Shown in pieces: positions 44,559 through 44,888 of a DNA stretch of 64,000 bases. The stretch comes from Eledone cirrhosa (Eukaryota): contig CAXHJY010000168.1 in the NCBI GenBank assembly GCA_964016885.1, positions 172,609 through 236,608 on the forward strand, written 5' to 3'. The notes under the pieces are model-generated. The model saw only the letters and a program-made list of their open reading frames with translations, was not told the DNA's origin and did not search any database. The position numbers were made by a program, and so were the translations under genes. Each line of letters starts with the position of its first letter. Within the stretch, counting starts at the first letter, position 1.

Positions 44559-44846
44559 CCTTGTCTGGCTTTCTGGAGAATAGAGGGAAGGTGTTTCCTC
44601 GAAAACCAGTATGACTCTAAAAACCGGTTTGTCTGTGTGTTTACATACAGAATAGCTGGGTTGCTCACAGTAAAGCAACCAGTGAAAGACTTGTTACATC
44701 TACATATGTATACGTGTGTGTATTCATATGCACACTAGTATTTCAGTATGCATATGTAGATGTACATTTTTAACTTAATTGTTTAAGCGTCAGTCATACA
44801 AAAGCGAGTTACAAACGAAACGAAATTTAATTTCGTTTCGTTATTT

Positions 44847-44888
<42 letters not shown>

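Follow-up and report, generated by a model that had tools for sequence, protein, structure and literature searches.

Two fixed end sites flank a tail hairpin in Eledone cirrhosa retrozymes and likely reflect Penelope-type insertion

The window analysed here is a 64,000-nucleotide stretch of the Eledone cirrhosa genome (assembly GCA_964016885.1, contig CAXHJY010000168.1, positions 172,609 to 236,608 of the forward strand). It holds insertions of A, B and C, three related tandem repeats with a hammerhead motif (non-LTR retrozymes) whose arms are arranged head-to-head in (TA)n, together with remnants of Penelope-type elements. The outer ends of both arms in each A/B/C insertion are the RNA 3' ends, and two sites are of key importance for them: S2, which lies 7-13 nt past a tail hairpin, and S1, which lies 53-74 nt upstream of S2. 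The features are listed below in window coordinates.

34247-34934, plus strand: unpaired arm of an A variant; S1 end, 5' end adjoining a 20-bp satellite
34953-37391, plus strand: Penelope-like element of Neptune type with GIY-YIG, truncated at its 5' end; a short inverted arm stops at S1 (34953) and the main arm at S2 (37391), 32-36-nt tail
42784-44345, minus strand: B left arm; 3.3 monomers of 467 nt, S1 end into (TA)n
44357-44850, plus strand: B right arm; 1.1 monomers, S2 end into (AT)n
44503-44574, plus strand: type I hammerhead motif in the B right arm (motif scan, Rfam HH9); core from 44521, predicted cut after 44551
44774-44787, plus strand: small CTTAA-TTGT-TTAAG stem-loop of B; its loop holds S1, the site used by the opposite arm ending at 42784
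44814-44842, plus strand: 13-bp tail hairpin of B with the core AAACGAAA/TTTCGTTT (44818-44838); the arm ends at S2 near 44850
46511-50811, minus strand: A left arm; 9.2 monomers of 468 nt, S2 end, hairpin at 46524-46545
50811-52080, plus strand: A right arm; 2.7 monomers, S1 end (52067-52080)
52775-54019, no strand assigned: family D, Penelope-type, head-to-head terminal repeats; S2 at 52775, S1 at 54019, tail for which no sense hairpin is predicted
58161-58387, no strand assigned: remnant of head-to-head terminal repeats from a third Neptune-type family; S1 near 58161, S2 near 58387
61044-61612, minus strand: C arm; 1.4 monomers of about 422 nt, S2 end, hairpin at 61052-61072

Positions 1-34245 are filled by a 34-kb array of the 20-bp satellite with higher-order periods, which adjoins the truncated A variant. 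A broken Penelope-like RT-endonuclease frame of another clade lies on the minus strand at 58432-60900 and ends in (TA)n. Hammerhead-like motifs of other short repeat families are found at 45209, 54181, 56368 and 63947, and similar motifs occur in many of the fetched loci.

The tandem monomers measure 468 nt in A, 467 nt in B and about 422 nt in C. As A and C are about 75% identical and B can be aligned with both, A/B/C form one lineage. A motif scan places a type I hammerhead core, ending in GAAACTAGT, in every full monomer of the three, and Rfam HH9 matches B, though under the gathering score of 52 (38.6 bits, E 1.4e-6); Rfam microRNA matches were dismissed as artefacts of (TA)n and perfect palindromes. 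Exact motif matches in the 3.0-Gb genome number 8,849 for A and 5,114 for B, and the search for C gave 1,384 candidates. The monomers are dispersed, carry no LTR and are non-coding, with only chance-like frames of at most 135 aa (start codon not required). Within one arm they are near-identical (differing by 0.4-0.5% in A and B), which is compatible with a circle without demonstrating one. Contigs from four sequencing runs span the monomer and three connect its end to its start, RNA ends not being visible in this way. Run X1, of unrecorded kind, has a very high word depth across the B monomer, in which copy number and expression are indistinguishable.

On the strand with the hammerhead motif, the B right arm ends about 8 nt past its 13-bp stem and then enters (AT)n. 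A and C, both on the minus strand, end at about 46511, some 10-13 nt past an 8-bp stem, and at about 61044, some 8 nt past an 8-bp stem, respectively. The strings that a first-pass annotation had quoted for these ends are all present in the window, among them the upstream end sequence CATACTTACATTTA, which is indeed identical at its two places (34921-34934 and 52067-52080); the copy ending at 34934 has no partner arm and adjoins the satellite. That annotation had also seen the terminal hairpin as conserved in three families. A hairpin does stand at the endpoint of A, B and C, but owing to their homology they do not count as independent cases.

The three hairpins have a common core of AAAYGAAA, a 5-6-nt loop beginning TTT, and TTTCRTTT. 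One pair has changed in a compensatory manner, being C-G in B and U-A in the other two. Extra pairs on both sides of the core are present in B, and despite both changes S2 remains near the stem base. The compensatory change was taken directly from the sequences, as an automatic alignment of the four tails left B out of register. The hairpin is the sole Watson-Crick stem of at least 8 bp in the A and B monomers and one of two in C, and only 3-6% of monomer positions fall 5-16 nt after such a stem. In whole monomers its pairs have predicted probabilities of 0.74-1.0. S1 sits in the loop of a second, smaller stem, CTTA..TAAG, in all three (predicted probability 0.45-0.73). Folding z-scores are -4.3 and -4.5 for B and modest for A (-1.6 and -1.4) and C (-2.3 and -0.9), the modest values spanning -0.9 to -2.4. 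The sense RNA, with 2-4 G-U pairs, is predicted to fold better than the antisense by 1.8-4.1 kcal/mol; the core stems are perfectly Watson-Crick, and DNA parameters give no strand preference. Inherited variants are absent from the 24 stem sites of A, compared with 0.15 per site overall. In B, five occur at 16 core stem sites (not a depletion), three keeping a G-U pair and two breaking the pair, and mismatches in the stem do not move the ends of the B copies that have them, which remain at S1/S2. Blocks of sequence beside the stem (CTTA..TAAG, CATAC..AGTGAG and TTTA(T)CG) are conserved as well. A further block, TATGCAAATT, at window 44420-44431 and at the same phase in A and C, is conserved in all three just downstream of S2 and presumably resembles an octamer promoter element.

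The second fixed site had been placed about 60 nt upstream. S1 is real, but its distance from S2 is not uniform: the linear spacing is 53-55 nt in C, 59 nt in A and 69-74 nt in B (about 32-45 nt once the stem is subtracted), and a fixed linear ruler between the two sites was rejected on this variation of 53-74 nt.

Endpoints scattered around the monomer would have spoken against fixed sites, and a genome-wide histogram found the opposite: in the samples without end bias, 145 of 165 arm 3' ends fall at S1 or S2. Counted within 8 nt of either site, these are 49/56 for A, 42/45 for the positional and 15/18 for the mid-monomer sample of B, and 39/46 for C; an S2-biased B set gives 45/47. All samples together thus place 190 of 212 ends at S1/S2 (about 7-8% expected), while the 5' ends are scattered over the monomer, only 13 of 212 lying in the S1/S2 windows. 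(TA)n-type TA flanks accompany 179 of the 190 site ends and two of the remaining 22, the latter group appearing to be later truncations. Within each site the ends step across a few T/TA positions, consistent with 1-4 nt of microhomology. The positional samples of A and B are the clusters among the first 100 pattern matches on contig 1 (A without its last cluster); A copies were located by exact pattern, A words being too common for a DNA similarity search. The mid-monomer samples of B and C consist of the 30 best matches of mid-monomer queries plus four further loci, and the S2-biased sample comes from a full-monomer B query plus one further locus. The histogram covers arms of at least 45 nt and at least 82% identity on contigs other than the window's own, apart from two ends at locus edges.

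The clearest regularity is found in how the two sites are distributed over the two arms. Including the B insertion of the window, 80 head-to-head pairs were collected, of which three touch a locus edge, 14 have a truncated end and 63 could be classed. Of the latter, 62 combine one S1 with one S2 end and one (in B) is S2+S2, S1+S1 being absent; independent site choice would give such pairing with a probability of the order of 1e-17. Four further S2 arms each carry a tiny inverted arm ending at S1. The earlier proposal of two fixed sites, one per arm, is therewith strongly supported and agrees with published Penelope biology. Its notion that the hairpin marks the end of the long arm survives in one sense, as the hairpin end is fixed and belongs to the arm running further into the monomer. 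It fails in terms of copies: in the B insertion of the window it is the 1.1-copy arm that has the hairpin end and the 3.3-copy arm that has the upstream one, and genome-wide the longer arm is that with S2 in 37 of 62 pairs and that with S1 in 25, so that equating the hairpin end with the arm of more copies was rejected. In the C insertion of the window, a short inverted piece follows the arm and reaches about 61661, where it ends inside the monomer's own (TA)n and not at S1; the genome-wide C ends cluster at the two sites, as counted above. At the B inversion junction (window 44340-44375), fragments of the hairpin 3' strand are repeated, as if by polymerase slippage.

The arms of a pair usually carry one haplotype and occasionally two templates. 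They agree at 125 of 130 polymorphic sites in A and 715 of 740 in B, where random elements would be expected to differ at 41 and 248 sites, respectively. C is uninformative in this respect: its arms agree at 50 of 64 sites (18 differences expected) and resemble each other no more than they resemble other elements. The haplotype sharing in A and B fits copying from one RNA, and would also fit a single source dominating at any given time, or conversion afterwards. Two insertions depart from it. At L189:1902-2749 (G000:C1:380449900-380454100), a B arm ending at S1 is joined without a gap to an A-variant arm ending at S2, with (TA)n on both sides, and at C4:299695880 the two arms, again S1+S2, stem from different B haplotype groups (subfamilies). 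A deletion between neighbouring insertions could mimic these two cases. A search with the chimeric locus L189 returned only B copies, and a local cross-family scan gave L189 again plus the nested L200, and no retrozyme-autonomous chimera. L200 was rejected as a chimera, being a nested insertion with its parts separated by (TA)n, and L145 (B beside an old Neptune fragment) was not counted, as it is without a recognisable terminal repeat.

The autonomous Penelope-type families follow the same pairing. For the Neptune family at 34953-37391, 28 of 30 fetched matches end at its two sites, the other two reaching locus edges, and five of six pairs are S1+S2 (the exception is S2+S2). Family D has nine of ten distinct pairs as S1+S2 with a looser S2 (the exception is S1+S1), counting the window copy, taking four near-identical neighbouring loci as one and including one inexactly mapped S2. 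A young Neptune-type family, L270, with two frames, a 4.2-kb unit and a tail of about 55-61 nt, has ten of ten pairs as S1+S2, and one further autonomous family has two end clusters about 66 nt apart. At L270:2082-5746, a long upstream frame overlaps the RT frame in a tandem unit of about 4.2 kb with many near-identical copies. A CxxC finger upstream of a C-terminal GIY-YIG, as described for the Neptune clade in the accessible text of PMC8557442, is visible in the comparators along with a Pfam GIY-YIG match, and the Neptune-type label is based on these motifs. Inside a 24-kb part of the window, five different Penelope-type families (34953-37391, 42784-44850, 46511-52080, 52775-54019 and 58161-58387) each present one S1 and one S2 end. 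Hammerhead variants with a U3-A8 core exchange lie at window 37209-37246 and at about 58230-58265; such variants are known from Penelope repeats, according to the available part of PMC4209133.

The comparison of the hairpin with autonomous tails turned out negatively. Among six other Penelope-type ends that were folded (two of the families with a folded end not assigned to S1 or S2), none carries a stem of at least 8 bp in the 22 nt next to its end; a stem of 6 bp is seen at one of them and an imperfect one at another, and for D none is predicted. The two-site rule is thus seen in all families tested, and the hairpin is particular to A/B/C. The A/B/C sequences have no match at the ends of family D, of the L270 family or of the Neptune element in the window, nor, nested copies aside, in the loci of two further families. 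Protein searches for an autonomous partner, which sampled some of the genome's families, yielded three further autonomous families, none with the A/B/C tail.

Two-ended insertion of this kind has a published counterpart. In the accessible text of PMC3846280 and PMC8557442, Penelope-like elements have a 30-40-bp tail that is optional or often found at one end, inverted repeats and (TA)n targets. A/B/C share with the Penelope/Poseidon, Neptune and Naiad tails the head-to-head inverted insertions, the tandem copies, the one-end extension, the (TA)n targets and a hammerhead upstream of the ends. They differ in being non-coding tandem repeats and in their longer tail, and the one-per-arm pattern, described as 'often' or 'optional' in those two papers, is counted here. 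The signature of Penelope-like insertion is likewise seen in the head-to-head arms of the 80 pairs, which are randomly truncated at the 5' end (their 5' phases are spread over the monomer), and in the 53-74-nt tail, present at one end only in 62 of 63 classed pairs. For the Anolis Poseidon protein PAc, available sections of Frangieh et al. 2024 (PMC11167929) describe cutting and extension of both strands in vitro, a predicted dimer and two internal RT starts bounding the tail, one of them in an AC-rich stem-loop, with no difference between strands. PAc resembles the scheme proposed below for A/B/C in its two internal starts bounding a tail, its stem-loop start, its AT-rich cuts on both strands and its predicted dimer; it is, on the other hand, autonomous and AC-rich in its stem-loop, and its starts are reported there as neither target-homologous nor strand-specific, whereas A/B/C have an A/U-rich stem, 1-4 nt of TA microhomology and a different site per arm. 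Metazoan non-LTR retrozymes, for which mobilisation by Penelope has been proposed (PMC7229834; bioRxiv 10.64898/2026.07.22.740005, both as far as accessible), share with A/B/C the non-coding tandem monomers, the type I hammerhead with a short palindromic stem III, the low GC and the thousands of dispersed copies; monomers of 422-468 nt set A/B/C apart. A term search found neither 'inverted' nor 'tail' in PMC7229834, and the accessible part of the preprint contained no analysis of ends or inversions. Our literature search, outside whose coverage most subscription journals lay, found nothing on retrozyme tails or two-template Penelope insertions.

The two-site ends of A/B/C are therefore likely the known Penelope retrotransposon tail on retrozymes, produced by an enzyme pair that copies RNA at both sides of the break. 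More specifically, we consider it probable that the two fixed sites flank the hairpin, one per arm, because a Penelope-type RT-endonuclease pair nicks (TA)n and primes inside the RNA; with both (TA)n strands nicked and one partner acting per site, the one-site-per-arm ends would likely follow. What is observed are the two sites, one per arm, the (TA)n flanks and the scattered 5' junctions with little overlap (61 of 80 lie between a 9-nt overlap and a 4-nt gap). The enzyme would be that of a Penelope-like element acting in trans, which would bind the 55-75-nt tail and, as a dimer, nick both strands of the (TA)n target. Priming would take place at S1, in the loop of the small stem, and at S2, at the 3' base of the hairpin, helped by 1-4 nt of TA microhomology. 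Synthesis of both cDNAs would then proceed upstream along a multimeric or circular RNA and break off at random points, after which the two would be joined end to end. For A/B/C, RT initiation at both tail boundaries is suggested by the end positions; for PAc alone has it been shown directly.

Copying of both arms from the RNA is not the only way to obtain such ends. If S2 were the sole priming site, the second arm could be a fold-back copy of the first cDNA, with endonuclease cleavage of the DNA intermediate creating S1 and the hairpin working at the DNA level. This would account for the strict S1+S2 pairing and for the shared haplotypes, and the perfect core stems fold equally well on both DNA strands; PMC8557442, in the part accessible, suggests that the tail arises from endonuclease resolution of an intermediate, and the Drosophila endonuclease requires the tail in DNA (as cited in the available text of PMC11167929). 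Nine of the 80 junctions, in which the two arms start at phases no more than 10 nt apart, also fit this scheme. The other 71 are asymmetric, however, and for PAc both sites are RT starts in vitro (PMC11167929, same sections). The longer S1 arms, impossible for a fold-back copy without later expansion, and the two insertions with arms from different templates disfavour this scheme further, and we regard it as improbable. We hold it to be very improbable that the hairpin and a U-run form a terminator or processing site making S2 the RNA 3' end, with S1 arising by L1-like twin priming on the same linear RNA. T-runs do follow the hairpin in A, B and C, and a conserved ATGCAAAT block stands after S2, which we take to be reminiscent of a small-RNA promoter element. 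Yet the arms read through S2 up to 14 times, the T4 runs of A lie inside or just after the stem and well before S2, and twin priming, which predicts S2-arm 5' ends beside S1, is disfavoured by finding none of 114 within 12 nt of it.

A third alternative accepts priming at two sites and questions the hairpin: short motifs and TA microhomology would set the sites, and the stem would be incidental, kept for RNA stability or circle folding. We deem this quite possible, though somewhat short of probable. Other families follow the rule without such a stem, B tolerates stem mismatches, the ends step along T/TA positions within each site, and the blocks beside the stem are conserved alongside it. Microhomology alone is disfavoured, as the much longer internal (TA)n runs are used by only one of 56 A ends (phases 330-339) and three of 46 C ends (310-319), and the compensatory change and symmetric B extension, which keep S2 near the stem base, do not suit an incidental stem. 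Returning to priming by the Penelope-type pair on the tail RNA, it is plausible that the hairpin positions it, as the first-pass annotation had supposed. The high predicted folding, the compensatory U-A/C-G change, the symmetric extension and the closeness of S2 to the base weakly suggest such a role; the six ends without a comparable stem, the lack of a sequence match to the autonomous ends compared and the mismatches tolerated in B argue against it. The RNA element bound by the enzyme likely includes the hairpin, and there are about even odds that the hairpin is needed to place S2. More tentatively, and in our judgement rather unlikely, the Penelope complex might be a hard-wired asymmetric dimer in which S1 belongs to one active site and S2 to the other, even with different RNAs or families, and the A/B/C hairpin would loop out extra sequence and so keep the canonical spacing of start sites.

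Tandem and inverted insertion by Penelope-like elements is still unexplained, and a mover of animal retrozymes has so far only been proposed. The A/B/C ends place a probable Penelope footprint directly on retrozymes and narrow the cis signal down to a two-stem tail of about 70 nt. Since two-site priming is already known, the gain is a sharper test rather than a new system. The start site in vitro is the same for both strands in the accessible part of PMC11167929, so that strict S1+S2 pairing is not explained there. The rule added here, one site per arm, which is kept even with two templates, can be tested in that published in vitro system. Should the asymmetric-dimer reading prove true, the abundant short retrozyme RNAs would offer minimal substrates for dissecting two-ended priming.
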